Assembly (NCBI GenBank): GCA_902614085.1
Contig: CACMJS010000003.1
Span: 84,945-148,944 of the forward strand
Direction: 5' to 3'
Source: an uncultured Alphaproteobacteria bacterium
GTDB taxonomy: Bacteria > Pseudomonadota > Alphaproteobacteria > HIMB59 > GCA-002718135
Length of the DNA: 64,000 bases
Shown: piece after piece, positions 6,548 to 37,589 of the stretch
Numbering within the stretch: the first letter of the stretch is position 1
How the letters are laid out: the number at the start of each line of letters is the position of its first letter
The notes under the pieces: model-generated
Databases searched by the model: none
What the model was told of the DNA's origin: nothing
Seen by the model: only the letters and a program-made list of their open reading frames with translations
Made by a program: the position numbers and the translations under genes

Positions 6548-6551
6548 TTTA

Positions 6552-11210: not shown

Positions 11211-11547
11211 AATTTAATTTTTTAATTATAAACATAAAAATAGCATAAGCTATTGCAGTGCTAATTATTGAAACTATCAGAGAGAAAACAAAGTTTTGTT
11301 TAAATTTTAAAAGTATTGGTAAAACAATAAAAAATACTATTGAAGGTACAGTCATAACAATTGTACTATAAGAGAGGTCTATAACTTTTTGATAGTCTTT
11401 TGTATCCCAATACAACCAAACAAATGCCAATAGTGAAGTTAATGGTAAAGAAACAATAATTGCAGCAGTCCAAGTATATTTTTTAGCTATTTCTGAAACA
11501 GCAACAATTATAATTGCACTGATTAGTGTCTTAAGAATTATGTACAT
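11200..11547 (-). CDS. small integral membrane protein (about 4 TM, DUF3147-like)
   Basis: Four hydrophobic segments. Overlaps the end of the upstream DMT gene, suggesting co-transcription. Confidence 0.5.
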   Translation of the reverse strand: MYIILKTLISAIIIVAVSEIAKKYTWTAAIIVSLPLTSLLAFVWLYWDTKDYQKVIDLSYSTIVMTVPSIVFFIVLPILLKFKQNFVFSLIVSIISTAIAYAIFMFIIKKLNFNF

Positions 11548-12406
11548 TTTTACTCACATTGGTTCGAGTTGCTATATAAACACCAAAAGTACAAATTAAC
11601 AACCCTATAATATCTATTAATAATAATTTTTCATCTAATACAAACCAGGCCATTACAGCTGTAGTTGGAGGTACTAGAAAGAAGAGGCTTGATGTTTTAG
11701 AAGCTGTTCCATTTTTTATCAAGTACATTAGAATTGCGTAAGCTCCAAAGGATACCATAATTATTTGCCAAGAAATTGATAAAATAAAACGTGTATCAAA
11801 ATTAATAAATGATATTTCAAAAAAAAGTGAAATTATAAATAAAAATATTCCAGCACTTAATGCTTGATAAAAATTATTAACTGAAAGACTGATTTCATGA
11901 GTAAATTTTTTTTGCCAAATAGTAGCTGAAGTTGCTCCTAAAAGCGCAACAATAGAAGCAATAACACCTATTATCGGGATTTCTGTTCCAATATCATAAC
12001 CTATAACTAATATAGTACCTAAAAAACCAAAAAATATTCCTATCCATTGCGTAACAGTAACTTTTTCTTTTAAAATAGGTCCACTTAAAATATTTGTTAA
12101 AATAGGTTGGAGGCATACAATTAACGCAGATAATGTTGCAGTAAGTCCCATAGAATAAGAAAAAAATACTCCACCTAAATAAAATCCATGAAAAAGAATT
12201 CCAGTAATCATAGCTTGAAAGATTAAATTTCGATTTATTCTTATTCTTTCCTTAAAAATAATAGAAAAAATTAAAAAAAATGCACTTACAATACAAAACC
12301 TAAAACATAGTGCTGCAAAAGGGCTTGCTGATTGCACAATAAATTGACCACTTATAAAAGCACTACTCCAAAAAAAGATAAATAGATATGAAAGATATAG
12401 GTTCAT
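11531..12406 (-). CDS. DMT-superfamily (EamA-like) transporter
   Basis: About 10 TM segments with two EamA-type halves; size about 290 aa. Confidence 0.75.
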   Translation of the reverse strand: MNLYLSYLFIFFWSSAFISGQFIVQSASPFAALCFRFCIVSAFFLIFSIIFKERIRINRNLIFQAMITGILFHGFYLGGVFFSYSMGLTATLSALIVCLQPILTNILSGPILKEKVTVTQWIGIFFGFLGTILVIGYDIGTEIPIIGVIASIVALLGATSATIWQKKFTHEISLSVNNFYQALSAGIFLFIISLFFEISFINFDTRFILSISWQIIMVSFGAYAILMYLIKNGTASKTSSLFFLVPPTTAVMAWFVLDEKLLLIDIIGLLICTFGVYIATRTNVSKNVHNS

Positions 12407-12466
12407 TATAAATAATAATTCTATTCTTTATTTATAAATGTTATGAAAATTTATTCATAGAATAAA

Positions 12467-12868
12467 ATGCTTAGCAATAAAATCAATTTTTTTTGTCCAA
12501 ATTGTAGTTCAGATAAATATATTGGTAAAACTACTATAGGAAAAAACTATAAAGATGAACCATATAAAAATGTAACATCTGAAATACAATGCGCTAAGTG
12601 TTTTATGGATATTCCATCAATTATTTCAGAAAATATTTCTCCTGATAAGCAAAATGAAATGTCCAAACTTTGGAATGAAATATATAAACCATCACATAAA
12701 GAAAATGCTGCACAATGTTCAAAATGTTTTAGGTATTATTGGGAAATAGAAAAATATTTATCTGAAAATAATATTTCTGCAAAAGATATTTTCTATCAAA
12801 CTTATAATCCTAAAAAATCAATTGGAGATTTAATTTGTAAGATTTGTGATCCATCATCTTTTAAATAA
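12467..12868 (+). CDS. hypothetical Cys-rich protein with four CxxC pairs (two predicted zinc ribbons)
   Basis: CPNC, CAKC, CSKC and CKIC pairs spaced through a 133-aa soluble protein. Confidence 0.5.
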   Translation: MLSNKINFFCPNCSSDKYIGKTTIGKNYKDEPYKNVTSEIQCAKCFMDIPSIISENISPDKQNEMSKLWNEIYKPSHKENAAQCSKCFRYYWEIEKYLSENNISAKDIFYQTYNPKKSIGDLICKICDPSSFK

Positions 12869-12873
12869 AATTA

Positions 12874-13728
12874 ATGTTAGCATATATTCTTAATATATCA
12901 GGTTGGCTGTTATTACCTTTCATGGATGGTATTGCAAAATATCTATCTTCAGAAATACATTTCATACAAGTTGTTTGGGGTAGATATTTTTTTATGCTTT
13001 TAGTCAGTTTTCCACTAGCATTTATATTTTTTAGAAAAGAAATTAGTTTTCCTAAAACAATTTCAGTACAGCTATTTAGAAGTTTTTTTTTATTTTTATC
13101 TACCGTTTTTTTCTTTTATGCAATTTCAGTTATAACTTTAGCAGAAGCTTTAACACTTGCATTTATCTCTCCAATAATAGTGACAATATTATCAATTTTT
13201 TATTTAAAAGAAAAAGTTGGAATTCATCGATGGACTGCAGTTTTGATTGGGTTTTTTGGTGTTATGATCATTATAAGACCAGGTTTTATAGAAATTAATT
13301 TCGCATCTTTTGCAGCTATTGCAGCAGGAATTTCATACGCTTTTTACATAATTTATACTCGAAAATTATCTTTTACAGATAGTGCTGTTGTTACTTTGCT
13401 TTTTACAGGTATCGTAGGTTGTATTTTTATATCTCTTATTGTTCCTTTTTACTGGATAAATTTAGATTTAAGACAATTATTATTACTTATCTCATTAGCT
13501 TCAATTGGAACTTTAGGACATTTTTTAATAATTCTTTCTTTAAGGCTTGGAGAAGCTTCTAAACTAGCTCCTTTGGGTTATTTTGAGATCTCCACAAATA
13601 TACTTGTTGGATATGCCTTCTTCGGTGATTTGCCTGATATTTGGATTTATTTAGGATTATCTTTGATTGTTTTTAGCGGTATTTATATTTTTATTAGAGA
13701 AAGAAGAGAGATTAAAAAAACTAATTAG
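12874..13728 (+). CDS. DMT-superfamily (EamA-like) transporter
   Basis: About 10 TM segments, including the conserved-type segment LKEKVGIHRWTAVLIGFFGVMIIIRPG. Confidence 0.8.
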   Translation: MLAYILNISGWLLLPFMDGIAKYLSSEIHFIQVVWGRYFFMLLVSFPLAFIFFRKEISFPKTISVQLFRSFFLFLSTVFFFYAISVITLAEALTLAFISPIIVTILSIFYLKEKVGIHRWTAVLIGFFGVMIIIRPGFIEINFASFAAIAAGISYAFYIIYTRKLSFTDSAVVTLLFTGIVGCIFISLIVPFYWINLDLRQLLLLISLASIGTLGHFLIILSLRLGEASKLAPLGYFEISTNILVGYAFFGDLPDIWIYLGLSLIVFSGIYIFIRERREIKKTN

Positions 13729-14575
13729 TTTTTCTAGTTGTTTGATAAATAAATATTGTAACAGATCCAAGCAGTAGGGCTCCCCCTATAATTGTATTTA
13801 GAGGAGGAATTTCATTTATAACAAACCAAACCCAAGCAGTACCTAAAACACTTTCTAATAAAAATATTAGAGCTACTTCATGTGCTGGAGCAAATTTAGG
13901 AGAAATTGTTAAAATCATAAATGGAATAGGAAGTATTAATAAGCACATTATAAAAAGAAATAAAATTTGATCATTATTTAAATTAAAATTAATTCCAAAA
14001 GGTAGAGCGTAAAGAGCTGATATTAAACATCCTAATAAACATGCAGGTACCAAATCTTTATTTTTAAATAATCTAACAAGAACCATACTAAAACCCATTC
14101 CTATTGCTACAATTAGAGCCATAATATCTCCGTATAAACCTGTACTTGTAAAGCTTCCTATTCCAATTATTATCATTGCAAGCATAGCAATTAAAATCAC
14201 TATCCATGTAAAAAGACTAGGTATTTCTTTAAGTATAAAAACTGAAAATAATGCAGCAAAAATAGGAGCTGATGCAATTAGAACTAATGTATTAGCTACA
14301 GCAGTATTTTGAATTGAATATACAAAACAAATATGAGTTATAGCATAGAGAATAGCGTAGATTATCCCTGGCACACCAATTAGATAAAATGATTTAAGAA
14401 AAGATCTTTTGTAAGTATAAATGAGAAAAATTAGTATCGTGACAATTGGTAAAGCGCTTCTATAAAATATTAAACTAAAATCATCTAAATTTACTAATCT
14501 AATAAATAAACTATCAGGGCTAAGTATTAAAACCCCTACAAATGATAGTATAAGCCCCTTATTTCTTGTTTTCAT
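13721..14575 (-). CDS. DMT-superfamily (EamA-like) transporter
   Basis: About 10 TM segments with a two-repeat architecture. Converges on and overlaps the 3' end of the previous DMT gene. Confidence 0.75.
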   Translation of the reverse strand: MKTRNKGLILSFVGVLILSPDSLFIRLVNLDDFSLIFYRSALPIVTILIFLIYTYKRSFLKSFYLIGVPGIIYAILYAITHICFVYSIQNTAVANTLVLIASAPIFAALFSVFILKEIPSLFTWIVILIAMLAMIIIGIGSFTSTGLYGDIMALIVAIGMGFSMVLVRLFKNKDLVPACLLGCLISALYALPFGINFNLNNDQILFLFIMCLLILPIPFMILTISPKFAPAHEVALIFLLESVLGTAWVWFVINEIPPLNTIIGGALLLGSVTIFIYQTTRKTN

Positions 14576-14643
14576 AAATATTTGAAAATAAATAGATTAT
14601 TAATATATCTATCAGTATCGTTCTTTAATTCACACTTGTTTTT

Positions 14644-15051
14644 ATGAAAAAATTACTTTTTTTATGTTTTATTTTTTTATCACTAAATACTCACGCCTTA
14701 GATTCAAATAAATTAATAAACCTCGATGATTTAAAAATACTTTTTGATCTTCAAAAGAATGATTGGAACGAAAATGTTCTTTTTCTCATAAAAAAGAATT
14801 CATTTTCTAAAGTAGATAATGACTCAGATGTATTTTATTTAAAATCAATATTTAATGATGGCGAAATAATTACAATGCCAATTTTTTCTAAGGATACTGT
14901 TGAAAAAATTATATTTGAATATATTTTTTTAGATTATAATAAAAAAAATTTAAAAATTATAAATAATCATTTTAATTCGTTTAAAAATTTTTGTTTTGAA
15001 TATCTCTATAATGAAAAGTCTATACAAGTAGTTATTACTAAATGTAATTAA
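14644..15051 (+). CDS. hypothetical secreted protein
   Basis: N-terminal signal peptide MKKLLFLCFIFLSLNTHA. No recognisable domain. Confidence 0.45.
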   Translation: MKKLLFLCFIFLSLNTHALDSNKLINLDDLKILFDLQKNDWNENVLFLIKKNSFSKVDNDSDVFYLKSIFNDGEIITMPIFSKDTVEKIIFEYIFLDYNKKNLKIINNHFNSFKNFCFEYLYNEKSIQVVITKCN

Positions 15052-15956
15052 TTAAAAACCATTGATGTAGCTTTAAAAATTAAACTATGTCTTTTAGCTA
15101 ATTCTAATTTATCATTTGAATATCCACCACCTATTACTGTCGCAACAGGAATTGATTTATTTTTAAAAAATTCTAACACTGTAATATCTCTTTTTAATAA
15201 TCCTTCAGTTGTTATTTTTAAATTTCCTAATTTATCATTCTCATGAATATCAACTCCAGTATCAAAAATTACTAAATCAGGATTAAAATTTTTTATACAA
15301 CTATTAAGAGTTTGATATAATATTTCTAAATATTCATTATCTTCTAAATTATCTTCTAATTCAACATCCATGTCACTTATTGATTTTCTAAATGGAAAAT
15401 TATTTTTACAATGAATAGAACATGTAAAAATTTTATCATTATCTTTAAGGATTGAGGCTGTACCATCTCCTTGATGCACATCAGTGTCAAAAATTAATAT
15501 TTTTTTTACTTGATGGGTTCTTATTAAATGTAATGAAGCATAAGCCAAATCGTTAAAAACACAGTATCCTGAACCAAAATCTCTATGACTATGGTGAGTT
15601 CCACCTGCTAAATGATTTGCTATACCATTCGTAATTGCTTCTTTGCATGTTAATAGAGTTCCATTAACTGCTAAAAAGGAGCGATTAGAAAGTGTTTCTG
15701 ACCATTTAAAACCCAATCTTCTTATTTCTTTATCGGACAAAGTACCATTTTTAATTTTTAATACGTAATCTAAATCATGACATATAGAAACTTCATCAAC
15801 ACTTGATTTTTGAGGACTTAGAATTTTTGCACGATGATAAAAATCTGAAGTTTTTAATTCATTATATAAATCTGAAAACTTACTGGCAGTAAATTTATGA
15901 TTTTCAGGCAGAGGAATGTCATAATCTTCGTGTGTTACCCAACTGATTTTTTTCAT
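15048..15956 (-). CDS. histone deacetylase-family (arginase-fold) deacetylase/amidohydrolase
   Basis: Motifs GGTHHSHRDFGSGYCVFND, DTDVHQGDG and GGGY are characteristic of the HDAC/AcuC/APAH family. Confidence 0.85.
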   Translation of the reverse strand: MKKISWVTHEDYDIPLPENHKFTASKFSDLYNELKTSDFYHRAKILSPQKSSVDEVSICHDLDYVLKIKNGTLSDKEIRRLGFKWSETLSNRSFLAVNGTLLTCKEAITNGIANHLAGGTHHSHRDFGSGYCVFNDLAYASLHLIRTHQVKKILIFDTDVHQGDGTASILKDNDKIFTCSIHCKNNFPFRKSISDMDVELEDNLEDNEYLEILYQTLNSCIKNFNPDLVIFDTGVDIHENDKLGNLKITTEGLLKRDITVLEFFKNKSIPVATVIGGGYSNDKLELAKRHSLIFKATSMVFN

Positions 15957-16188
15957 AAATTTGCCTCTTTTTAACTCAATTTATGCCTAAATTAATTTGT
16001 ACATAGTTTATGTGGCACTAATCTACCAATATATATTTAGTGAGTAAATGTATTCTATCCATAAAGAATTAGTGTCACAACCAATATGGAATTTGTTTTA
16101 ATATTTGATTTATTAATTATTTGTTTAATTGGTTTTTTTATTGTCAATTTTTATTGAATTAATAATCAATTTAAATAATATTTTAAGA

Positions 16189-16968
16189 ATGAAAGATTTT
16201 TATGATCTAAATGGCTATTTTTCACCATTAAAAATTTATAATGCAAAAGAAGCAAATTTTTTTAGAAATAAATTAGAAGACTCAGAAAAAAAATTAGGTA
16301 AACTTCATTATATTGTGAAAACTTATACAATAATGAAATGGGTGTATAAAATAGCAACTAATAAAATATTGCTTGATTTTGTTGAAGAAATAATTGGTAA
16401 AAATATATTATTATATAATGCAACTTTTATAATAAAAGAACCAAACACTAAAACACACGTAAGTTGGCATCAAGATCTTACCTATTGGGGCTTTGATAAT
16501 AATGAAAAACAAGTAAGTGCATGGTTAGCTTTATCCAAAGCTAATGATCAAAGTGGTTGTATGAAAATGATTCCAGGTTCCCATAAAAATGGATTTTTTG
16601 AACATCATTCAACTGAAGATAAAAATAATGTTTTATCTAGAGGTCAAACTGTAAAAGATATTGATATAAATAAAGCAGTATCATGTCCGTTAGAACCTGG
16701 TGAAGTTTCCTTTCATCATGGTCTAACATTACACGCATCTCAACCTAATTCTAGCAATGACAGAAGAATAGGATTAAATTTTCAATTTATTTCTACTGAT
16801 ATGAAACAACTAAAAAGCAAAAATGATAGCGCTATTTGTGTAAGAGGAGAAGATAAGTATAAAAATTTTAAGACAGATCAAGTAGCTAAAAATGACTTTG
16901 ATCATGAAGCTTATCAACATCTTTTAATATTAAATAATCATTATAATGAAACAATAAGAAAAAATTAA
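16189..16968 (+). CDS. phytanoyl-CoA dioxygenase (PhyH)-family Fe(II)/2OG oxygenase
   Basis: WHQD (HxD) and a distal HHGLTLHAS His; PhyH-like length. I chose the ATG at 16189 rather than the TTG at 16129, whose 20 extra codons are hydrophobic filler in an intergenic region. Confidence 0.7.
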   Translation: MKDFYDLNGYFSPLKIYNAKEANFFRNKLEDSEKKLGKLHYIVKTYTIMKWVYKIATNKILLDFVEEIIGKNILLYNATFIIKEPNTKTHVSWHQDLTYWGFDNNEKQVSAWLALSKANDQSGCMKMIPGSHKNGFFEHHSTEDKNNVLSRGQTVKDIDINKAVSCPLEPGEVSFHHGLTLHASQPNSSNDRRIGLNFQFISTDMKQLKSKNDSAICVRGEDKYKNFKTDQVAKNDFDHEAYQHLLILNNHYNETIRKN

Positions 16969-17030
16969 TATTTATTTATTAGAATCTGAAATAAGAGATC
17001 TAAAAATTAACTTCTATTTAATCAAATCAT

Positions 17031-17942
17031 ATGAATGTTTTATCTGGAATTAGTATCGGATTTATTGGTTACACGATATTTGTCATTTTAGATACAATAA
17101 TTAAAAAATACCTAGTTAATGAATATTCTGTTTTTCAAATAAATTTTTATATTTGTCTTTTTAGTTTTATACCAACACTATTAACTCTTTATTTTCTAAA
17201 CAAATGGAGCTCACTAAAAAATGATATTATTCATATACAGCTTCTTAGAGGATTATTTGGATTAATTTCAGGGGCTTTAGTAGTTTATTCATTTAGAGAA
17301 CATGCATTTAGTGAAATTTACCCAATATTATTTAGTGCTCCATTAATGATAACAATGTTATCCCATTTTTTTTTAGAAGAAAAAGTTGGTATTAGAAGAT
17401 GGTCAGCGGTAACAGTTGGATTTATTGGTGTATTAATAGTTAGTAGACCTGGCACTATTCATTTTTCATTAAGTCTATTTGGTTTATTTTTTTCCGCATT
17501 ACTAATGGCAATTAATATTACTTTAGTAAGAAAGTATTCAAATAATCAATCATCAATAGCATTTACTTTTTATGCTTTTTTATCTGCAACTATTTTAAAT
17601 GGATTACTTAGTTTTAATAGCCACATCGCATTATCTTTTAATGATCTAATGATACTTGTTTTTTGTGGTATTATTTGTGGAATAGGGGGTAATTGTTTAA
17701 CAATCGCCTCAAAATTTTTAGAGTCTAGTGTTTTTGCTCCTATTCAATATACACAACTAATTTCTGGAGCAATTTTAGGTTATTTATTTTTTGCTGATAT
17801 TCCAGATATTTATGAAATTATAGGATCATTAATTATTGTTGGTAGTGGAATTTATATAATAATTAGAGAAACAAAAATAGGGGTTAGGCCATATATTAAA
17901 CAAGATTCAAGATTTCGTGACCAATTTAATAGAGGTCACTAA
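17031..17942 (+). CDS. DMT-superfamily (EamA-like) transporter
   Basis: About 10 TM segments, including LEEKVGIRRWSAVTVGFIGVLIVSRPG. Confidence 0.8.
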   Translation: MNVLSGISIGFIGYTIFVILDTIIKKYLVNEYSVFQINFYICLFSFIPTLLTLYFLNKWSSLKNDIIHIQLLRGLFGLISGALVVYSFREHAFSEIYPILFSAPLMITMLSHFFLEEKVGIRRWSAVTVGFIGVLIVSRPGTIHFSLSLFGLFFSALLMAINITLVRKYSNNQSSIAFTFYAFLSATILNGLLSFNSHIALSFNDLMILVFCGIICGIGGNCLTIASKFLESSVFAPIQYTQLISGAILGYLFFADIPDIYEIIGSLIIVGSGIYIIIRETKIGVRPYIKQDSRFRDQFNRGH

Positions 17943-17997
17943 ATTAATAATTATAAATCAAAACTTTGTGATAATATTTTAATAGCATAAAATTATT

Positions 17998-19185
17998 ATG
18001 AAAAATTTATTAAATAATAAAAATCCAATAACTTTACTAATTTTATCATCAATAGCCATGCCTATCGCTTTTAGTACTTGGATGGTTTTATTAAATAATT
18101 TCTCAGTTGAAAGAGCAAGTTTCACTGGAGTTGAAATTGGAATACTTCAAAGTATAAGAGAGATACCTGGCTTCCTAGCATTTACTATTATTTTTTTATT
18201 GTTCTATTTTAAAGAGCAATATTTTGCTATTTTTTCTTTAGCCTTAACTGGTTTTGGTGTTGCAATTACAGGTTTCTTACCAACTGTTTATGGTTTGTAT
18301 TTTACAACAATTATTATGAGTACTGGCTTTCATTATTGTGAAACGGCCAAAAATTCTTTGAGTTTACAATGGCTTTCAAAAGAAGAAGCTCCACCAGTTC
18401 TAGGAAAATTAATAGCTGTTAGCTCAATTACGTCTTTATTTTTGTATTGTATAATTTGGAGTTTATTAGAAATCTTTAATTTAGATTATAAGTATATATT
18501 TTTAATTGCAGGATTAATTTGTATTCTTATTTCCATACACCTTTTTATATCCTTTCCTTTTTTTGAAATCAAAAATAAACAACATAAAAAAATAATTCTA
18601 AAAAAAGAATATTCTCTTTACTATATCTTAATTTTTTTATCAGGTGCTAGAAGACAAATTTTTGTAGTTTTTGCAGCATTTTTAATGGTAGAAAAATTTG
18701 GATATTCAGCATCGCAAGTTACTTTATTATTTTTAGTTAATTATATTTTTAATTGGTTTTTTGCAGAACGTATTGGAAAGTTAATAAATATATTTGGTGA
18801 GAAAAAATGTCTTATATTTGAATATATTGGACTCGTTATAGTTTTTACATCTTATGCATTCGTTACTAATGCTTATGTTGCAGCAGGTTTATATATTATT
18901 GATCATATGTTTTTTGCATTAGCTATTGCAATTAATACATATTTTCAAAAAATTGCTGATCCAAAAGATATTGCAAGTACTGCAGGTGTTTCATTTACTA
19001 TCAATCATATAGCTGCAGTATTTATCCCAGTACTTTTAGGATTTGTTTGGATTAATTCTCATTCAATAGTTTTTTTAATTGGATCTTTGTTTGCTCTATT
19101 ATCTTTAATCGCTTCATTTTTTTTACCTAATAATTTATCAAAGATTATTTTAGATGAAAGTAATTTAAAAAAAGTAAGAGTATAA
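17998..19185 (+). CDS. MFS-type transporter
   Basis: About 12 TM segments in two six-helix halves separated by a basic loop (KNKQHKKIILKK). Confidence 0.6.
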   Translation: MKNLLNNKNPITLLILSSIAMPIAFSTWMVLLNNFSVERASFTGVEIGILQSIREIPGFLAFTIIFLLFYFKEQYFAIFSLALTGFGVAITGFLPTVYGLYFTTIIMSTGFHYCETAKNSLSLQWLSKEEAPPVLGKLIAVSSITSLFLYCIIWSLLEIFNLDYKYIFLIAGLICILISIHLFISFPFFEIKNKQHKKIILKKEYSLYYILIFLSGARRQIFVVFAAFLMVEKFGYSASQVTLLFLVNYIFNWFFAERIGKLINIFGEKKCLIFEYIGLVIVFTSYAFVTNAYVAAGLYIIDHMFFALAIAINTYFQKIADPKDIASTAGVSFTINHIAAVFIPVLLGFVWINSHSIVFLIGSLFALLSLIASFFLPNNLSKIILDESNLKKVRV

Positions 19186-19186
19186 T

Positions 19187-19606
19187 TTACGCACCTATAT
19201 AACTAAGAATTATTTTTCTTTTGTATTTACTGTACCTGTGTTCAATTAGATATATTCCCTGCCACATCCCTAATTTCATTTCTTTATTGTTTATAGGAAT
19301 TGTTAATGAGGTTTGAGTAAGCATAGATTTTATGTGAGCAGGCATATCATCATCTCCTTCATAACCGTGTTTATATAATGAAGAATCTTCAGGAACAATT
19401 CTTTGAAAAAAAGAATTAATATCATCTAATACATCAGGGCTAGCATTTTCCATTATTGTTAATGAAGCAGAAGTATGTTCTATAAATAAATTTAGCTGAC
19501 CTTTAATTATATTATTTTTTAGAATCCAATCATGAACATTATTTGTAATTTCATACATTCCCTGTCCATTATTAGAAATTATCAATTCATCTTGTAGATT
19601 TAACAT
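19187..19606 (-). CDS. yjbQ: YjbQ/UPF0047-family protein (secondary thiamine-phosphate synthase)
   Basis: Family signatures HTSASLTI.EN, DDMPAHIK and G.WQGIYL.EHR. Confidence 0.85.
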   Translation of the reverse strand: MLNLQDELIISNNGQGMYEITNNVHDWILKNNIIKGQLNLFIEHTSASLTIMENASPDVLDDINSFFQRIVPEDSSLYKHGYEGDDDMPAHIKSMLTQTSLTIPINNKEMKLGMWQGIYLIEHRYSKYKRKIILSYIGA

Positions 19607-19797
19607 TTTCTAATCTTAAAATGAAGTCGTGGCACCTACAAGGAGAATTATAATGAAAATTAATGTTATGAAAAAAAGAACTATTCTTTTGATAAGTGCC
19701 ACAATTTTTAAAATATAATCAAATTTTGTTTTAATAGAGATATAAATAAGGAAAAATTGTGTTATGATTATCCTAATTCTTTAGCTAGGAATATTAT

Positions 19798-20688
19798 TTG
19801 TTAAACAATAATCAATTTGCAATTTTTTTAATTATTATATCAATTATTTTTGGTACTCTTATGGGTACATTTATAAAATTAGCTCAAGAAGAATTAAATG
19901 TATTTACAACTGGTTTTTTACGTTTTTTCTTTGGATTTTTAATCATCACCCCTTATATTCTAAAAACAAAATTTGAAGTATTTAGGACAAAAAATTTAAA
20001 AATTCATATTTTACGGTCAGCACTAAACTTACCTGCAATGCTACTTGGTTTTGCAGCTTTAGCTATGCTTCCATTAGAGAAAATGACAGCCATTCATTTT
20101 ATAGTTCCTATCATTGTTACAATCTTAGCTGTGATATTTTTAAAAGAAAAAATCTATTTATATAGGTCAATTGCATTAGTGATGGGTTTTCTAGGAATGT
20201 TAATAATATTGCGACCTGGTATTATAGATATTTCTATTGGAATATATATGGCGCTTATTTCATCGCTAATTTGGTCAGTAGTTATAATTTTAACTAAAAA
20301 AGTATCTAAGGATGATAGTGCTATAACAATATTATCACACCAGTATGTTTATATGAGTCTTTTTTCATTTCCATTAGTTATATATTTTTGGGATCAGCCA
20401 AGCTTAAAAACAATTATTTTTATATTATGTGCTGCAATGTCAGGAACTATATTACATATTGCATTAAATCATGCATATAAATTAGTTGATGTAACTTTGA
20501 CTCAACCTTATTCATTTTTAGGATTAGTAGTTTCATCAATAATTGGATATTTTGTCTTTAGTGATAAACCTGATTTTTATACCTGGTTAGGCGCCTCTGT
20601 AATTTTTTGTGGTGTGCTTCTAATTTCTTACAGAGAACTTCAATTAAATAAAGAAATTACAAGAAAGAGATTAAATATTAATTCATAA
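19798..20688 (+). CDS. DMT-superfamily (EamA-like) transporter
   Basis: About 10 TM segments, including LKEKIYLYRSIALVMGFLGMLIILRPG. A TTG start is needed to retain TM1, so the start is uncertain. Confidence 0.75.
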   Translation: MLNNNQFAIFLIIISIIFGTLMGTFIKLAQEELNVFTTGFLRFFFGFLIITPYILKTKFEVFRTKNLKIHILRSALNLPAMLLGFAALAMLPLEKMTAIHFIVPIIVTILAVIFLKEKIYLYRSIALVMGFLGMLIILRPGIIDISIGIYMALISSLIWSVVIILTKKVSKDDSAITILSHQYVYMSLFSFPLVIYFWDQPSLKTIIFILCAAMSGTILHIALNHAYKLVDVTLTQPYSFLGLVVSSIIGYFVFSDKPDFYTWLGASVIFCGVLLISYRELQLNKEITRKRLNINS

Positions 20689-20730: not shown

Positions 20731-21978
20731 ATGCAAAATAATTATTTTTATAAATGGATAGATAGTAATAAAGATGATGAAATAAATAGTTTCAAAGAAT
20801 GTATCGATTCATATATTTATTTTAAGAAAGATGCTTTTTATAAAACTAACAAATTAATTAAAAAAAAACCAGAATTTAATGCTCCAAAATTATTAAAAAT
20901 AGTTTTATTGCTTTTTTCTAGAGATGTACAAAAAATTTCATTAGCTAGAGAAACATTCAAATCAATTTCCATTGATGAAGTAAATGATTATTTTCATCAA
21001 TATTTAGAGATAGTAAATCTCTGGATTAAAAATGATTTAAAAAATTTATTAAATAAATTGGAATTAATTATAAAAGATAATCCCAAAGATATTTTTGCAA
21101 TCAGATTATTTCATTTTAATAATATTTTCTTGGGTATTGATAGTAAATTTTTAAATAAACATGATGAAATACTAAGTAAGTGGTCTGAAAATGATCAGCA
21201 TTATAATTTACTATTAGGGATGACCAGCTATGCTTTTGAAGAAAATAATATAATTGATAAAGCTAAGCTTTTAGCTTTAAATTCACTAAAACAATCATCA
21301 AATGATTTATGGAGTTGGCATGCCCTTTTGCATGTACACGATAATGAGAATAACAACTCAATTAACAACAATGATAATTTTAATAAAATTAATTGGTCAA
21401 TCTACGGGCCAATAAAAAGACATATATGGTGGCACCAATCATTAATATTATTCTACAATCAAGAATATGAGAAAAGTTTAAAACTATTTGATAATTATTT
21501 CTCTTCTTCAGAAATTTTTTATTTAGATTTTTGTAATGCTTGTTCTTTTTTATTAAGACTTCATTACAAAGGAGTGGATGTTAAAGTAAGAATGGATAAA
21601 TTAAAAGATTATGCTGAATATTTTAAAAAACAACACATACTTCCATTCATTGATTATCATCTTATTTTTTATTACTTATACTATAATGACCAAGATTATT
21701 TTCAGCAACTTGAAGAGAGAATGGAAGAAAATTATTTAGAAAATTCTTTTAAAGAAAATTATATTAATTATTTAAAGCCAATCATTCACAGTATGAAAAC
21801 AAATGAATTATTAAACGAAAATATAATTAAATCACAATTTAAATACCTTGGAGGTAGTTTTGCTCAACGAGAACTTATTTTTTTAAGTTTAATCCAAAAT
21901 ACAAAATATGAAAAAAATAAATCAGATTTAATATCAGAATATAATGATTATAAATCAGTATCAAAATTATATGTATAA
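20731..21978 (+). CDS. hypothetical all-helical repeat protein (TPR-like, possibly TTC38-like)
   Basis: 415 aa, helix-rich and repeat-like. First gene of a translationally coupled trio. The family assignment is a guess. Confidence 0.35.
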   Translation: MQNNYFYKWIDSNKDDEINSFKECIDSYIYFKKDAFYKTNKLIKKKPEFNAPKLLKIVLLLFSRDVQKISLARETFKSISIDEVNDYFHQYLEIVNLWIKNDLKNLLNKLELIIKDNPKDIFAIRLFHFNNIFLGIDSKFLNKHDEILSKWSENDQHYNLLLGMTSYAFEENNIIDKAKLLALNSLKQSSNDLWSWHALLHVHDNENNNSINNNDNFNKINWSIYGPIKRHIWWHQSLILFYNQEYEKSLKLFDNYFSSSEIFYLDFCNACSFLLRLHYKGVDVKVRMDKLKDYAEYFKKQHILPFIDYHLIFYYLYYNDQDYFQQLEERMEENYLENSFKENYINYLKPIIHSMKTNELLNENIIKSQFKYLGGSFAQRELIFLSLIQNTKYEKNKSDLISEYNDYKSVSKLYV

Positions 21979-23785
21979 CTCTAAATTGTTGGAAGAAAAA
22001 TTTATAAAAAATTCAAATAATAATTTTACCTTATTAAAAGATAATCTTTTTTTTCGAAATATAACTTTTCAAAATTTTCAAATTTTAAAGATGATATCAT
22101 TTTTGGTAAGAGACAAAAATTGGAATAACTATGATCCTAAAATTCTAAATTATGAAGAGAACTTTGATACATCCTTAGAATATATATTCGATTTAGAATA
22201 TGGTGTAGATGAAATTCTTAAAACAAGAAATGTTATATTATTTTCTGATAATTCAATCACTCTATCCTCTGAAGGAGAATTTTTAACTGATTTTTGGACT
22301 AATAGAATAGGTTTTAATTTATTAATTCCATTACAAAATCATGTTGGCTCAAACATCATTGTAACAAAAGGGAATGATTTAAAAGAGGAAAAAAAATTTC
22401 CAGAAAACATAAAACCTGACCAACCATTTTTTAAATTTAAAAACCTTGCTTATACTTTAGGCGATAGTTTGTTGGTTAATATTAATTTTGAGGGTATTTT
22501 ATTTGAAATGGAGGATCAAAGAAACTGGGGTGATGCTTCTTACAAAATATATAGTGGTTCTTTATTAAATCCTTTTCCATATCTAGAAAAAGGAGGGTCT
22601 AATTTCTTTCAAACTATTAAAATAGATGTAGTAAATAAAAAACAAATATCTTTCCCGTCTAAGAATATTGTAAAAATTGATCATACCACTCCTTATAAAT
22701 TTCCTAAAATTGGTATAAAAATTGATTCTTTAATTATTCCTGATGATAATTTAATAAATAACTTTGATTATTATTACTATCTTATTGATTTTACTGAAGA
22801 TTTTACAAATGTAACTTCAAGATTTCAGAACAAAGTATTCCTTGTATCTTTGGTTGATCATACTAATGATCCTGATGATGAGTTAAAAAAAATTTACAAT
22901 TTTGTAACTGAAAATACTATTAATTTAGATAAAATTTTAATTTGTCCAAAAATATATTTGAATAGTTTTCAACCAGCTGGTGAATGGCCTAAAGCTCCAG
23001 AATTAAATGAATACTATAAAATTGCGAAAAAGATATTTTCTAATAGTGAAATTGTTTCTGGAATGGTCACTAATTTTACAGAATTAAATAGAAAAAGACC
23101 AAAAATGTTTTATGATTTGGTTAGTTTTTCCTTCACTCCAATTGTTCATGATTCTAGTGATTTTGGTGTATTAAATACACCTGAAACTATACCTTATATA
23201 CTTAAAACTCTAAAAAATTTTTCTAATAGTACCAATGTTCATATTGGTCCAATTTCTATTGGTATGCATTTCAATCCGTATGGTGAAAGTCTTGTAAGTA
23301 ATAAAAACAAAATAAGATTAGAAATGGCTGATAGCGATCCAAGGCATGATCAATTATTTTCACTAACTTGGACACTGGCAATTTTTATTCAATCAATAAA
23401 TAAAGAATCAAAATTTTTTACTTTTAATTCTATTTATGGGCATCATGGAATATTAAATAAAGATAATACCAAAAGACCATTGTATCATTTAAATAATTTT
23501 CTTATTTCATTAACAAATTCAGAAATTTTTAAATTTAATCCAGTTAACGAAGTGTATGGATTAAAAATCGTACTAAATGATAAAAAGTATTATTTATTTG
23601 TTAATTCCTCAAAACAAAAAAAGGAAATTATTATTCCTGAAATAAATTTTAGTAATCAATATAAGCTTAATTTAAACAATTATACTGATATTTTTAATAA
23701 TGATTTTTCTTTTTTTAACTTTAAAAATGATACAAGTCCATATACGTTCGAGCCCTTAGAAATTAAATTTATAGAAGATAAATGA
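21971..23785 (+). CDS. hypothetical protein (about 604 aa), unknown function
   Basis: Long clean ORF. ATG 21971 overlaps the upstream stop (ATGTATAA); an alternative ATG lies at 21944. I recognise no motif. Confidence 0.5.
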   Translation: MYNSKLLEEKFIKNSNNNFTLLKDNLFFRNITFQNFQILKMISFLVRDKNWNNYDPKILNYEENFDTSLEYIFDLEYGVDEILKTRNVILFSDNSITLSSEGEFLTDFWTNRIGFNLLIPLQNHVGSNIIVTKGNDLKEEKKFPENIKPDQPFFKFKNLAYTLGDSLLVNINFEGILFEMEDQRNWGDASYKIYSGSLLNPFPYLEKGGSNFFQTIKIDVVNKKQISFPSKNIVKIDHTTPYKFPKIGIKIDSLIIPDDNLINNFDYYYYLIDFTEDFTNVTSRFQNKVFLVSLVDHTNDPDDELKKIYNFVTENTINLDKILICPKIYLNSFQPAGEWPKAPELNEYYKIAKKIFSNSEIVSGMVTNFTELNRKRPKMFYDLVSFSFTPIVHDSSDFGVLNTPETIPYILKTLKNFSNSTNVHIGPISIGMHFNPYGESLVSNKNKIRLEMADSDPRHDQLFSLTWTLAIFIQSINKESKFFTFNSIYGHHGILNKDNTKRPLYHLNNFLISLTNSEIFKFNPVNEVYGLKIVLNDKKYYLFVNSSKQKKEIIIPEINFSNQYKLNLNNYTDIFNNDFSFFNFKNDTSPYTFEPLEIKFIEDK

Positions 23786-24804
23786 AAAAATTAAAAGGAG
23801 CATTAATTGGTTGTGGTTTCTTTGCTGAAAATCATATTTTAGCTTGGAAAGAATTAAAAAATATTGAAATAATATGTGTTTGTGATTTAGATATTAAAAA
23901 AGCTAATAAATTTAAATCTAAATTTAACATTTTACATTCTTATTCATCGACAGAGTTAATGTTAAAAAAACATAAAATAGATTTTGTTGATGTTGTAACA
24001 ACAATGGAGACACATTTAAATATTGGTAAAATTTTATCTAAGTATAAAATTCCAACTTCTATACAAAAACCATTTGCTGAAAATTTATCAAATGCAAAAA
24101 AAATTGTTTCTTTATATAAAAAAAATAAAACACCACTTATGGTACATGAGAATTTTAGATGGCAAAGCCCTCTATTAAAATTAAAAGAAATTATAAATAA
24201 TGAGAACTTAACTAAACCTCATTATGCCAAAATATCTTTTAGACATGCTAATCCAGTTGGATACACCAATCAAACATATTTATATGATTTAAAAGAGTAT
24301 TTAACCTTAGACGTGGGAATCCATTTGTTTGATTTAAGCAGATTTTTTATGGGAGAAGCAAAAAGTATTTATACGGTAAATCAAAATACAAATAATAAAT
24401 TTAAAGGTGAAACAGATTTTATATCCCTAATAAGAAATAAAAATAAAAGCATTACCATTGTTGATGCATCTATTTCTTCAATAAAAAAACCAGATAGATT
24501 TGCTCAAACACTAATTAATTTAGAATTCTCTAACGGCTCAATTGATTTGGACTATAATTATAAAATTACTCTTCACAAAAATAATATGAGGAAGATTTAT
24601 GATGGAAAACCAAAGAAATATAAATGGATTTCAAAGCCTTGGGATCAAATTCAAGAAAGTGTGATCAATACGCACAAACATTTCATTGATTCATTAATAA
24701 ATAATATTGAACATGACACCAGCGGTGAAGATAACATAAAGAGTTTATCATTAGTCTTCAATTCATATAAATCTGATAAGCTAAGAAAAGAAATTAAAAT
24801 TTAA
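23782..24804 (+). CDS. Gfo/Idh/MocA-family NAD(P)-dependent oxidoreductase
   Basis: N-terminal Rossmann motif GALIGCGFFAENH and EKP-type motif (QKPFA). ATGA overlap with the upstream gene. Confidence 0.75.
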   Translation: MKKLKGALIGCGFFAENHILAWKELKNIEIICVCDLDIKKANKFKSKFNILHSYSSTELMLKKHKIDFVDVVTTMETHLNIGKILSKYKIPTSIQKPFAENLSNAKKIVSLYKKNKTPLMVHENFRWQSPLLKLKEIINNENLTKPHYAKISFRHANPVGYTNQTYLYDLKEYLTLDVGIHLFDLSRFFMGEAKSIYTVNQNTNNKFKGETDFISLIRNKNKSITIVDASISSIKKPDRFAQTLINLEFSNGSIDLDYNYKITLHKNNMRKIYDGKPKKYKWISKPWDQIQESVINTHKHFIDSLINNIEHDTSGEDNIKSLSLVFNSYKSDKLRKEIKI

Positions 24805-24818: not shown

Positions 24819-27431
24819 TTAAATTGTAAATTTAGATATTTCATCTCTAATTAATTTACTTAAGAGACTGTAACCAAGTACATTCATGTGTAATGGATCT
24901 TCTGAATAAAATTTTTCAAATCCAGCATCAAGCATAGGAGAGCAAAGATCAATATAACGCCATTGACTAAAATTCTCAATTTTGTTTTTTATCCGTTGAT
25001 TTGCTTCTAAAATTGTATTTAAATAATTATTCCTGAATACACTTGGTTTTATGGATACAAAAAAACATAACGTATGAGGTAATTTTTCATTAACCTCTGA
25101 AGCAAATAATAAAAATTCATTTTCTAAATCTTCAGCACTCATTCCACTACCTATATCATTATCACCTGCATAAAAAATCATCTTGTCAGGATTATTTGGG
25201 ACTACTATTCTGTTAAAATAGGTGCGACATGACACTAATGTGGAACCACCAAATCCTAAATTTAATAAACTATCAAATGACAAATCAGTTTTTGCATTTT
25301 CCCAATCTCTAAATGTTGAACTTCCAAATAAGACTATTTTGTTATTTTTATATTGATCTGAATGTAATTTAATTTCTAATTCTCTCACGTCTGCTTCAAA
25401 TTCTTCTTCAATAGGGCTAACTAAATTTAAATTACTAACTACATATTCATTATTAATTTTATTTTTTAAAGCAGATTTTGCTAATTCAATTGCTTCTTCA
25501 ACATATGTTCTAAAAGTTTTTCTATATTTAGATAAAAAATTTTCTAACTCTTTTTTATTTTTCATATCATTTACAAAATCTTTTATTTTTATTGGTTTTT
25601 TAATAACTGCGGAATAAATTGTATCAGAAATTGAATAATCAAAATTGGCTAATGCAATAGGAACAAGAAGAGGCTCTGGTTTTAATTGGTCTGCTAATAA
25701 AAATGCACCTGGTTTTAATGGGCCTGGGGAATTTGGAGTTAAATTATCTTCAGTTTCAGAAGTACCTTCTGGCGCTATAACTAAAGGTCTGTTTTGATCA
25801 AAAATATTTTGAGTTTCGATAAATAATTTACTTTTTCTCTTCTTTTTTTGTTCTTGATTTTCATTTAAATAATCTGATTCTGGTGTATGGACGAAAATAT
25901 AATCTAAATTCTCATAATAATTATATCTCCAGAATTCTGTATTTCTAGAATATCGAGCAATTCTTTGACCACCATCACCATATTTTGGGAATAAGATTTT
26001 TGCACTTATAAAGTGACTATCTATACTAAATTGATGTCCATTAGCTAAACCATTTTCTTCAATGCTTGCCAAATGATTATAAAAAAATATGTTTGTAGGT
26101 TCGTCAGGTAAATTTTCCATACCTTTAATAACATAAGGTACTTGATCAAAAGCTTTTATAAAATCTGAATTTGTTAATTTTTGTAATGCTTGTTTATTTA
26201 TTGAATCATATGAAGTTGCTACTCTGTTGTATATTTTATTTAGTTGTTTGAAAAATCTATTTTTTCTTTCTATACCACTCAAAGCATCAATCATTAAACT
26301 AGCTATAGATTTTTCATCATCATTACCTGTTATAATTAAATCATAAATTGTATCGAATGCTAAAGAATGAGTTAAATGATTTTCTAATAAATGAGGTATT
26401 GTATAAAGTTTTGAATTACTTGGTATTGTTGCAGAATTATCATTTAATAAATATTGAAAAAACTCTTTTTCATTTTTAGCTGGATATGTCGTTAAGCCTG
26501 TTGAACTTTGAATATAACGACCTAACTGCCATAATTGTCTTTTAAAGAATTTGATTGCCAATTCTGCATTGGTTTTAATTAAATTGTCAATAAACTCATT
26601 TGAAAATTTTAATATCGTTGTATCTCTTGTTGCTTTTAATGAGTAGGGCGATTCAATTTCATGAAATCCTGAAGATAAGGATAATGCTACTCCTGGTCTA
26701 GCTATTGATCTTGAATTGTTTTCTAATTGATCATCTTTTAAATTTGTAAAAGATGCCTCAACCTTACCTTTTAACAAAATATTTATTCCATCTGATTTAG
26801 TGCCTTCTAACGCTATGTATTCACCCGCTGAAAATAACCTAACGTTTGCATAGCTTATTAATTCCTCGAGATCGTTATCATCAAGAAAAGCTAAAAATGC
26901 AGAATTTTTAATTCTTTTTGTATTTATAATATCTCCACTAGTTTTAACACCTTCTGCTATATTAATATTTTTTTGTTTGATAGGTTTTTTTAAATTGCGA
27001 GATGACCTTATTAAATTAATTGATTCAAATAATAAAAAAGAATAGAAAAAACTAGCATAGTCAGGATCTACTTCTTCTAATTCTTTTAATTTTTCAATTT
27101 TGATAGAAATATATTCTGAATTACCTTTAATAAATATATCCGACATATATCTACTAGGTGCATTTAAGCCTGAAATTCCAAGAGGTGATCCTTCATTTTG
27201 TAATGTTGCTAACTTATAAAAAACATTATTATGATATTTTACGTATTCCGCTTCACCTTTTAAAAGAATAAAAATTTGATCTGCAATACCATGCTGTTCT
27301 GCAATTTTAATGTCTTCATTACTTTTATGTAATTCTGCACCAGAATTTATTAAATCTTCAGTATTTTTTTTCGGAGACAAAGAAAAACCTTTATCTACAA
27401 GTATTAAAGATATTTTTTCACTTAAATTCAT
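24819..27431 (-). CDS. multidomain protein: 2x cyclic-nucleotide-binding-like domains + PlsC-type acyltransferase + SGNH/GDSL hydrolase
   Basis: Two beta-roll CNB-like modules at about aa 45-135 and 175-300. Acyltransferase motifs NHLASIE (H453..E458), APEGT (aa 553-557) and VPIAL. SGNH blocks GSS (703-705), GFGGS, GDND (756-759) and DPLH (845-848). Confidence 0.7.
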   Translation of the reverse strand: MNLSEKISLILVDKGFSLSPKKNTEDLINSGAELHKSNEDIKIAEQHGIADQIFILLKGEAEYVKYHNNVFYKLATLQNEGSPLGISGLNAPSRYMSDIFIKGNSEYISIKIEKLKELEEVDPDYASFFYSFLLFESINLIRSSRNLKKPIKQKNINIAEGVKTSGDIINTKRIKNSAFLAFLDDNDLEELISYANVRLFSAGEYIALEGTKSDGINILLKGKVEASFTNLKDDQLENNSRSIARPGVALSLSSGFHEIESPYSLKATRDTTILKFSNEFIDNLIKTNAELAIKFFKRQLWQLGRYIQSSTGLTTYPAKNEKEFFQYLLNDNSATIPSNSKLYTIPHLLENHLTHSLAFDTIYDLIITGNDDEKSIASLMIDALSGIERKNRFFKQLNKIYNRVATSYDSINKQALQKLTNSDFIKAFDQVPYVIKGMENLPDEPTNIFFYNHLASIEENGLANGHQFSIDSHFISAKILFPKYGDGGQRIARYSRNTEFWRYNYYENLDYIFVHTPESDYLNENQEQKKKRKSKLFIETQNIFDQNRPLVIAPEGTSETEDNLTPNSPGPLKPGAFLLADQLKPEPLLVPIALANFDYSISDTIYSAVIKKPIKIKDFVNDMKNKKELENFLSKYRKTFRTYVEEAIELAKSALKNKINNEYVVSNLNLVSPIEEEFEADVRELEIKLHSDQYKNNKIVLFGSSTFRDWENAKTDLSFDSLLNLGFGGSTLVSCRTYFNRIVVPNNPDKMIFYAGDNDIGSGMSAEDLENEFLLFASEVNEKLPHTLCFFVSIKPSVFRNNYLNTILEANQRIKNKIENFSQWRYIDLCSPMLDAGFEKFYSEDPLHMNVLGYSLLSKLIRDEISKFTI

Positions 27432-34989: not shown

Positions 34990-35043
34990 ATCGTTCATTT
35001 TGAATAATTCAAAACGGAAGTAAACGAAAGTTGAAGGAACGCA
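34990..35043 (+). promoter_or_regulatory. glutamine riboswitch-like aptamer (glnA RNA motif), copy 1
   Basis: AUCGUUCA ... CGGAAGUA ... GAAAGUUGAAGGAACGC. P1 forms as CGUUC (34992-96) paired with GAACG (35037-41). Internal hairpins are UUUUGAA/UUCAAAA and AAC/GUU. Confidence 0.75.
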
Positions 35044-35056
35044 TGCAAGTTATTAA

Positions 35057-35109
35057 ATCGTTCAATCTGTATTAACAGATCGGAAGTAGGCTAAAGCTGA
35101 AGGAACGCG
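35057..35109 (+). promoter_or_regulatory. glutamine riboswitch-like aptamer (glnA RNA motif), copy 2
   Basis: AUCGUUCA ... CGGAAGUAGG ... UAAAGCUGAAGGAACGC. P1 forms as CGUUC (35059-63) paired with GAACG (35103-07). The hairpins AUCUGU/ACAGAU and GGC/GCU covary relative to copy 1. Confidence 0.75.
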
Positions 35110-35126
35110 GATCTTATTATTAATTT

Positions 35127-35178: not shown

Positions 35179-35237
35179 TTAAAAAGTTAGATAATAAAAA
35201 ATTATTCTATTCAAATCTCATGAGGTTTACTCATTGA
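35175..35237 (+). CDS. candidate 20-codon upstream ORF (MVKKLDNKKLFYSNLMRFTH)
   Basis: Hand translation. AAAGG lies 12 nt upstream. Its TGA stop (35235-37) overlaps the ATG of the ATP-grasp gene (TGATG). Confidence 0.3.
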   Translation: MVKKLDNKKLFYSNLMRFTH

Positions 35238-36643: not shown

Positions 36644-36652
36644 GGTATAAAA

Positions 36653-37588
36653 ATGTTAAGTAGAACAGCAGAATATCTATATTGGATAAGTCGTTATATG
36701 GAAAGAGCCGAAACAACTGCGAGGCTTTTGGACGTTGGTTATAGAATGTCTCTTTTCCCAAATCCTAGTGGTTATAATAATGAATGGGAATCAGTGTTAT
36801 CTGCTGCCGGAGCAATAGAAGGATATAAAAATAAATATAATACAATTGAACAAAGAAATGTTGAAGATTATCTATTTTTCGATGAAAGTAATCCTTCTTC
36901 TGTCTATAATTGTATTCTTAATGCTCGAAATAACGCATTAGTAGTTAGAACTTCCTTCACCCCTGAGTCTTGGTTAGCAATTAATAAAACTTATCAAGAG
37001 ATATTAAACTTAAAAGAAAAAAAATTTACTAAATCTGATTTACCTGACCTTACTGAATGGACCATAGAGCAAGTAAACTTATTTAGAGGATCGTTAAGTT
37101 CTTTGCTTAGAAATGATGGTTATAATTTTCTTTTTCTTGGATTATTTATTGAGAGGGCAGATAACTCAGCAAGATTATTAGATGTAAAGTACTTTGTTTT
37201 ATTACCTAAACCTCAATATGTAGGCGGTAATATTGATAATATGCAATGGAGTATATTGTTACGTTCTTTATCATCATTTAGAGCTTTTCGATGGGCATAC
37301 GATGGCAATATTACCGCAACTAAAATTGCTGATTTTTTAGTTTTAAATAATAACTGCCCTAGATCTTTAAGTTTTTGTATTCAGAATATTGTTAAACATT
37401 TAAATAATCTAACATGTAGTCCAGAAAAAGTTGGAAGAATTTATAATAATTTAAAAGATCTAAATTCTAAAATTCAAGAAGAAAAAATAGAAACAATTGT
37501 TGAATATGGTCTTCATCAATTCGTAACACAATTTATTAGAAAAATATCTAGTGTTGATAATGAAATACATAAGGAGTTTTTTAATTAA
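36653..37588 (+). CDS. alpha-E domain protein (DUF403 family)
   Basis: N-terminus MLSRTAEYLYWISRYMERAE and an internal repeat GLFIERADNSARLLDV, characteristic of alpha-E proteins that partner with cpATP-grasp enzymes. Confidence 0.8.
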   Translation: MLSRTAEYLYWISRYMERAETTARLLDVGYRMSLFPNPSGYNNEWESVLSAAGAIEGYKNKYNTIEQRNVEDYLFFDESNPSSVYNCILNARNNALVVRTSFTPESWLAINKTYQEILNLKEKKFTKSDLPDLTEWTIEQVNLFRGSLSSLLRNDGYNFLFLGLFIERADNSARLLDVKYFVLLPKPQYVGGNIDNMQWSILLRSLSSFRAFRWAYDGNITATKIADFLVLNNNCPRSLSFCIQNIVKHLNNLTCSPEKVGRIYNNLKDLNSKIQEEKIETIVEYGLHQFVTQFIRKISSVDNEIHKEFFN

Positions 37589-37589
37589 T

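Follow-up and report, generated by a model that had tools for sequence, protein, structure and literature searches.

Positions 20731–24804 of a 64-kb stretch of DNA from an uncultured alphaproteobacterium (contig CACMJS010000003.1; the whole stretch is hereafter called the window; GC content ~25%) contain a three-gene operon that is real and conserved. Sequence comparison supports, with moderate confidence, its reading as a cytoplasmic operon for sugar oxidation that is conserved in SAR11-type marine alphaproteobacteria, is kin to the gene pair starting the oxidative D-apiose pathway and probably serves a substrate other than apiose. Carter et al. are said to have described this pathway in 2018 with the dehydrogenase ApsD and the lactonase ApnL as its first two steps, and the dehydrogenase and lactonase of the operon are proposed to descend from that gene pair. 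The new element is a divergent ApnL-like clade with TTC38-like and, in some lineages, RraA-like partners; the family of the central enzyme is known and little studied. The operon and the gene upstream of it comprise the following features.

20731–21978, + strand: TTC38-family all-helical (tetratricopeptide repeat (TPR)-like) protein, 415 aa; open reading frame (ORF) call, first gene of the conserved trio
21971–21978, + strand: ATGTATAA start/stop overlap at the TTC38-like/ApnL-like junction, from reading of the sequence
21971–23785, + strand: divergent ApnL-like (D-apionate-lactonase-family) protein, 604 aa; NF049900; an alternative start at 21944 gives 613 aa
23782–23785, + strand: ATGA start/stop overlap at the junction of the ApnL-like and dehydrogenase genes, from reading of the sequence
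23782–24804, + strand: ApsD-like Gfo/Idh/MocA NAD(P)-dependent dehydrogenase (Gfo), 340 aa; PF01408 and PF22725
19798–20688, + strand: EamA/DMT transporter; PF00892, E = 3.6e-33; outside the conserved module

The coordinates and junctions of the three + strand ORFs were read directly and agree with the ATGTATAA and ATGA linkages reported in the first-pass annotation of this DNA. At the first junction, the ATG of the ApnL-like gene (21971–21973) lies just ahead of the TAA of the upstream gene (21976–21978). At the second junction, the ATG of the Gfo gene (23782–23784) overlaps the TGA of the ApnL-like gene (23783–23785). The 604-aa start is preferred over the 613-aa start because 604 aa is the length of most close homologues and because the 8-nt overlap at the first junction recurs in loci L081, L084 and L091, which are only 44–52% identical. 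The corresponding overlap spans 14 nt in L092, and the overlap between the ApnL-like and Gfo genes measures 4 nt in L084 and L091 and 1 nt in L081. The central ORF had been considered very likely real, and this judgment is upheld by a chance estimate and by homology. At ~25% GC, stops make up ~8.8% of random codons, and a 604-codon open frame would arise by chance with a probability of ~1e-24 by our own calculation. Homologues number in the hundreds for each of the three proteins, and single-cell genomes (AG-892-A10 and others) hold relatives that are 88–95% identical; with these genomes and with hits named "Pelagibacteraceae bacterium", the window is assigned to SAR11. A promoter scan around the operon was uninformative in such AT-rich DNA, with 51 sites against 52 expected; a terminator scan at the operon found none, and an Rfam scan detected no regulatory RNA close to it.

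Six lineages carry the trio, with gene order and overlapping junctions kept and flanking genes unrelated, which answers in the positive the co-conservation check proposed in the first-pass annotation. The six lineages are represented by L001–L004 (window type), L081–L083 with L005, L084 with L085, L091, L092 and the P0077 contig, and GC contents of 24–30% are found in all trio lineages with fetched DNA. Pairwise identities between lineages are 41–51% for the TTC38-like protein, 42–55% for the ApnL-like protein and 66–71% for Gfo. In three lineages (L081/L005, L092 and the P0077 contig), a gene for an RraA-like protein (PF03737; 227–230 aa) is coupled to the 3′ side of the Gfo gene. The PF03737 family takes in HMG/CHA aldolases. 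No RraA-like gene was found in the window by tblastn.

The EamA/DMT gene does precede the trio on the same strand, at a gap of 42 nt, but its proposed membership in the module is not sustained. It adjoins the trio only in L001 and L002 and is absent from L081–L085, L091, L092 and even L003, which is 88% identical. Because the window contains five EamA genes in 9 kb, the adjacency means little, and the gene was rejected as a conserved pathway transporter. In L092, genes for an aldo-keto reductase, a PfkB-family sugar kinase and an RbsD/FucU mutarotase (5192–7601, − strand) lie beside the operon on the opposite strand and constitute a pentose/furanose-type context.

Profile matches and conserved residues place the central protein in the broad ApnL family as a deeply divergent member. 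The NCBIfam model NF049900 (D-apionate lactonase ApnL) covers residues 33–563 with an E-value of 2.3e-93 and a score of 313.8 bits, below the equivalog cutoff of 750 bits. The homologues in L081 and L084 score 316.5 and 326.5 bits, respectively, so that all three SAR11-type lineages tested fall between 314 and 327 bits. A clade intermediate between the SAR11-type proteins and true ApnL scores ~500–530 bits, and the true ApnL proteins of Brucella and Microvirga reach 954 (L059) and 867 (L007) bits. The domains PF25837 and PF25838 (Apionate_lact_N and Apionate_lact_M) are recorded for the 95% identical protein P0001 and for the proteins of L081, L084, L091 and L092; the central protein yielded no match in our local copy of Pfam because that copy lacks the PF25837–PF25839 models.

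An alignment of the SAR11-type proteins with proteins named D-apionolactonase or D-apionate lactonase by JGI and UniRef contains 47 invariant columns, including E179, E181, D182, Q183, R184, N185, W186, D188, S190, K192 and Y194 (EMEDQRNW motif). The FEMEDQRNWGDASYK segment, which had been singled out as memorable in a protein otherwise described as free of recognizable motifs, is the invariant signature of the ApnL family. The SAR11-type clade is monophyletic and keeps 56 of the 76 columns that are near-invariant in other family members. An AlphaFold2 (AF2) model (predicted local distance difference test (pLDDT) score, 89.6) consists of a β-sandwich, a TIM barrel and a second β-sandwich. Its likeness to the glycoside hydrolase (GH) families GH36, GH97 and GH30 is at the level of architecture only (TM-scores of 0.2–0.4 and identities of 8–11%), and a PDB sequence search returned no matching chain. 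To our knowledge, the ApnL family has only one characterized activity. A known family has thus been found for an enzyme that the first-pass annotation had called uncharacterized, which goes part of the way to the refutation foreseen there, but at 314 bits the protein falls far short of the 750-bit equivalog cutoff, and its substrate may differ from that of true ApnL.

The Gfo/Idh/MocA assignment, the only one made for the trio at the outset, is confirmed by a Pfam scan (PF01408, E = 7.9e-17; PF22725, E = 1.4e-10). The closest solved relative of the operon Gfo is PDB 5uhw/5ui9 (E = 4.7e-70), which leads the other solved Gfo relatives by ~56 orders of magnitude in E-value (runner-up PDB entry, E = 1.4e-13). 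The Gfo of L059, whose gene immediately precedes that of true ApnL, matches 5uhw with 645 bits and is its orthologue, and the ApnL-adjacent Gfo is presumed to be a candidate D-apiose dehydrogenase ApsD. The operon Gfo shares 34–40% identity with the Gfo proteins of ApnL-family loci. The SAR11-type Gfo clade is monophyletic and retains 62 of the 91 columns that are near-invariant in the Gfo proteins of non-SAR11 ApnL loci. Weak NCBIfam matches to BT_2158 and BT_2159 were also obtained. The 5UI9 structure represents an oxidoreductase from Agrobacterium radiobacter and was used to solve the NanOx structure by molecular replacement (PMC7535918). ApnO was considered as a Gfo paralogue, which would blur the Gfo assignment, and was rejected. 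It is a separate, P5CR-like protein of 275 aa that matches PDB 5t57 and has a fold unlike that of Gfo (bioRxiv 2020.08.24.261826).

The surroundings of the operon differ from those of canonical D-apiose loci. A Gfo gene adjoins the ApnL-family gene in ~45 of 75 non-SAR11 loci. True ApnL loci carry genes for the ApsD-like Gfo, ApnO (275 aa, 5t57), OiaK (NF042436) and the RuBisCO-like OiaX (NF042437, 772 bits), along with an RbsB-like binding protein with ABC components and a GntR-type regulator. ApnO, OiaK and OiaX are given as D-apionate degradation genes in a 2026 paper in the Journal of Biological Chemistry (JBC), and the 2018 study of Carter et al. (Nat Chem Biol 14:696) is cited in PMC12994016. 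The operon resembles the D-apiose pathway in that the same two protein families stand side by side, the ApnL signature is kept and the Gfo is closest to 5uhw. The operon differs in that its lactonase and dehydrogenase share only ~27% and ~35% identity with the canonical proteins, its NF049900 score is 314 rather than the required 750, and its Gfo gene lies downstream of the lactonase gene rather than upstream as in most canonical loci. Moreover, a TTC38-like protein, accompanied in sister lineages by an RraA-like protein, takes the place of ApnO, OiaK, OiaX and the ABC transporter. No sugar ABC transporter was found near the operon, and a literature search found no link of SAR11 to ApnL or apiose.

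Among ApnL-family loci without an adjacent Gfo gene, a homologue of HpcH/HpaI-type aldolases tends to be found a few kb away (L014, L023, L039, L046, L052, L054, L056, L060, L067, L072 and L074). These loci may represent another variant of the pathway.

From the directly observed gene structure, family memberships, co-conservation and nearby absence of the classical downstream genes, we infer a reaction sequence, a type of substrate and a role for the TTC38-like protein. The Gfo/Idh/MocA enzyme would oxidize C1 of a small aldose with NAD(P)+ to an aldonolactone, which the ApnL-like protein would hydrolyze to the aldonate. The TTC38-like protein, made from the same mRNA in a fixed proportion, would be either a third catalytic component or a partner in a complex with the lactonase. 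If catalytic, it would probably bind a metal or a carboxylate and act on the acid or on a precursor. In the sister lineages, the presence of an RraA-like class II aldolase/decarboxylase suggests that the acid would be made into a 2-oxo acid, which would then undergo cleavage or decarboxylation. Because the equivalog score is low, polar residues are replaced in both enzymes and the classical downstream genes are absent nearby, the substrate is probably a relative of D-apiose rather than D-apiose itself; plausible candidates are pentoses or tetroses of a branched or furanose type. The small catabolic module envisaged earlier thus keeps its sugar-oxidizing outline but loses its DMT transporter and its motif-less central enzyme.

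Several observations weigh against this reading. The reaction class itself is extrapolated across ~27% identity, and the ApnL-like proteins score 314–327 bits where the equivalog cutoff is 750. Polar residues of true ApnL are replaced at H119, H133, H161, E292, D396 and R433. The Gfo columns that have changed include E83, D158, R172, R199 and Q298. That 5uhw is ApsD is presumed, following what Carter et al. reportedly showed in 2018. A tblastn search of the 64-kb window detected no homologue of ApnO, OiaK, OiaX, RraA or HpcH, and Pfam scans of 46 further ORFs in the window revealed no IlvD/EDD dehydratase, enolase-superfamily (MR_MLE) dehydratase or aldolase. Finally, TTC38-like genes occur elsewhere in unrelated operons, a distribution that a generic accessory role would explain as well as a catalytic one.

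The component for which a characterized relative is missing is the 415-aa protein rather than the central enzyme on which the first-pass annotation had focused. The 415-aa protein has no match in Pfam, NCBIfam or PDB sequences. A word-indexed search returned 84 relatives, every one at least 42% identical, and an exhaustive profile search returned 1591, mostly of 440–470 aa and labeled merely "tetratricopeptide repeat protein". One of the profile matches, P0221 (E = 2e-40), belongs to the same 90% cluster as TTC38 of zebrafish (Danio rerio; UniProt A3KPN8). An hhalign comparison of the 415-aa protein with zebrafish TTC38 gave a probability of 99.7% and an E-value of 8.8e-26 over 372 columns at 26% identity, with the motifs WSxHAxxH, HxxWHxAL and GGSxAQR aligned. 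These alignments identify the 415-aa protein as a full-length member of the TTC38 family. It shares with the animal and bacterial members full-length homology and all three motifs, but it is shorter (415 versus ~440–470 aa) and belongs to a tight, isolated subclade, outside which profile scores drop from 474 to ~200 bits.

Across 114 relatives (median identity of 21%), the residues P118, D120, G135, E171, D192, W194, H197, H201, W222, H231, W234, H235, D254, R276, R287, F306, H310, G374, G375, S376, Q379 and R380 are conserved at 84–100%, and every one of these family-wide residues is present in the operon protein. The AF2 model of the protein is an α-solenoid (pLDDT, 87), and a fold search with it retrieved generic TPR superhelices only. 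The spacing of His pairs at i/i+4 on successive predicted helices suggests that they contribute to one surface site. Human TTC38 is listed among the targets of the hydroxamate panobinostat (10.1101/373845), which fits a metal site and is only a hint of one. A search for informative domain fusions of TTC38-like proteins found none, and none of 140 papers that mention TTC38 has it in its title.

The conserved polar constellation of the TTC38-like protein and its catabolic-operon setting speak for catalysis or ligand binding, while the fold and the lactonase-like rate of evolution of the protein leave room for a partner subunit. A reading less probable than the preferred one gives the TTC38-like protein no catalysis of its own: as a TPR scaffold, a chaperone or a regulatory subunit, it would stabilize or assemble the ApnL-like enzyme, leaving an operon of two chemical steps only. 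TPR proteins usually mediate protein–protein contacts, and generic TPR superhelices are all that the fold search yielded. Nevertheless, the retention of five His, three Asp/Glu and three Arg residues and a Ser-x-x-Gln-Arg element at a median identity of 21% is unusual for a scaffold, and the i/i+4 His pairs on successive predicted helices suggest a single binding site. The listing of human TTC38 as a target of a small-molecule metal chelator (10.1101/373845) points in the same direction. A partner of the lactonase would be consistent with the tight 8-nt overlap of the two genes and with their similar rates of divergence (41–51% and 42–55% identity, against 66–71% for Gfo), but canonical ApnL works without such a partner, and a hidden Markov model (HMM) of the TTC38-like clade gave no hit in any of 75 ApnL loci of the canonical or intermediate type. 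The diverse operon partners of the TTC38 family elsewhere are also compatible with a scaffold.

Among the data examined, coupling to the ApnL-like/Gfo pair is restricted to the TTC38-like subclade of the operon. Elsewhere, a TTC38-like gene accompanies genes for an acyl-CoA dehydrogenase and a LysR protein (L086). In L087 (3338–7230) and L088 (2219–5496), which are unrelated contigs of higher GC, a TTC38-like gene follows a cluster of PTPS, short-chain dehydrogenase and Vut_1 (queuosine-precursor transporter family) genes, a combination suggesting that this other subclade is associated with pterins or queuosine. In Paracoccaceae (L093/L094, 4646–11525; at least 15 contigs), a TTC38-like gene forms part of an apparent oxygenase operon in the order FA_desaturase, Rieske ferredoxin, TTC38-like, ferredoxin reductase, Fe-ADH, esterase and Zn-ADH, where the end of the Rieske ferredoxin gene and the start of the TTC38-like gene share coordinate 6001. 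The apparent context of this member is of the di-iron oxygenase type.

The comparison with canonical loci also bears on whether the operon is a genuine start of the D-apiose pathway, with Gfo as ApsD, the central protein as ApnL and ApnO, OiaK and OiaX/T/C encoded elsewhere in the genome; we consider this unlikely. The apiose-pathway pair provides the closest characterized or solved relatives of both proteins, but in the three SAR11-type lineages tested the NF049900 score is less than half the equivalog cutoff, which true ApnL passes. The residues that are invariant across the ApnL family are retained, but among the canonical near-invariant columns 20 of 76 have changed in the ApnL-like protein and 29 of 91 in Gfo, several of them His, Asp, Glu or Arg. 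The two genes are adjacent as in canonical loci, but their partners are TTC38-like and RraA-like genes, and ApnO, OiaK and OiaX are found neither in the window nor in the called-gene tables of the flanks in the other trio lineages. In addition, apiose is mainly a sugar of plant and seagrass cell walls and should be scarce in the open ocean.

It is very improbable that the central protein is a glycoside-hydrolase-like enzyme working with a Gfo of the glycoside 3-dehydrogenase or redox-neutral NanOx type on a glycoside or anhydro-sugar: Gfo/Idh/MocA enzymes do include glycoside 3-dehydrogenases and NanOx, the operon Gfo has weak BT_2158/BT_2159 matches, 5UI9 served to solve NanOx and the layout of two β-sandwiches and a TIM barrel is like that of GH36, GH97 and GH30, but the TM-scores to these GH families are just 0.2–0.4 with 8–11% identity, the sequence is specifically that of the ApnL family with its invariants intact, and among solved Gfo structures 5uhw is by far the nearest to the operon Gfo.

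Within the preferred sugar-oxidation reading, a bolder version can be drawn by analogy with the non-phosphorylative aldose pathways of the Dahms/Weimberg type, which use an aldose dehydrogenase, a lactonase, an aldonate dehydratase and a 2-keto-3-deoxy-acid aldolase. Were the TTC38-like protein the dehydratase, the four-gene version of the operon would have as many steps as these pathways, and of the same kinds. In this version, the dehydratase step is the only one without an assigned enzyme, and the TTC38-like protein is the only member without an assigned function. The operon differs from the Dahms/Weimberg pathways in that no known dehydratase family (IlvD/EDD or enolase superfamily) is present among the neighbors scanned, and in that the aldolase candidate of the operon lineages belongs to the RraA/HMG-aldolase family rather than to DHDPS and is absent from the window. 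In its full form, the TTC38 family would consist of unrecognized metal-dependent enzymes built on a TPR-like solenoid, the operon member would convert the aldonate to a 2-oxo acid by dehydration or isomerization, and the four-gene version would make up a complete and hitherto undescribed non-phosphorylative pathway, turning a small and perhaps branched sugar into pyruvate and a C1–C3 fragment. We regard this proposal as speculative and rather doubtful.

Other parts of the window contain further features. The transporter-rich stretch 11531–20688 includes EamA/DMT genes at 11531–12406, 12874–13728, 13721–14575, 17031–17942 and 19798–20688, an MFS gene at 17998–19185 and genes for a PhyH dioxygenase, an HDAC-like amidohydrolase and a UPF0047 protein. 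On the − strand, 24819–27431 encodes an 870-aa fusion of unusual architecture that combines a cyclic-nucleotide-binding domain, a PlsC-type acyltransferase region and a GDSL/SGNH hydrolase domain and that is 96% conserved in three SAR11 single-cell genomes. A tandem pair of glutamine riboswitch aptamers (34990–35111, + strand; 66 and 64 bits) is located 5′ of a circularly permuted ATP-grasp/Alpha-E/transglutaminase-like operon (35234–38429) and not of glnA. An Rfam match to 5_ureB_sRNA (57867–58151, − strand; 127.6 bits) is antisense within the urease α-subunit gene (57715–59421) and is probably due to conservation of the coding sequence and not to a genuine small RNA of this organism. A separate carbohydrate island (40406–54190 and 4329–6219) contains genes for an epimerase, a GH32/GH43-like protein, two glucose/sorbosone dehydrogenases (GSDH), a 2-hydroxyacid dehydrogenase, an aldo-keto reductase, an FGGY kinase and an SBP_bac_1 protein with two permeases; at 5266–6219, an SMP-30-type gluconolactonase gene adjoins a 3-hydroxyisobutyrate-dehydrogenase-like gene.

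In SAR11 bacteria, which have small genomes and few known sugar pathways, an operon as conserved and abundant as this one has a bearing on the choice of dissolved sugars consumed. The 90%-identity clusters around the window proteins contain 588 and 782 metagenomic sequences. A second, deeply divergent ApnL clade with other partners would widen the known scope of the ApnL family. The TTC38 family spans bacteria to humans, and the coupling of one of its members with a dehydrogenase, a lactonase and an aldolase-family protein provides a testable hypothesis for TTC38 chemistry. If the enzymatic reading of TTC38 were true, the operon would define a new route in the most abundant heterotroph of the ocean and would offer the first biochemical handle on the orphan human TTC38.

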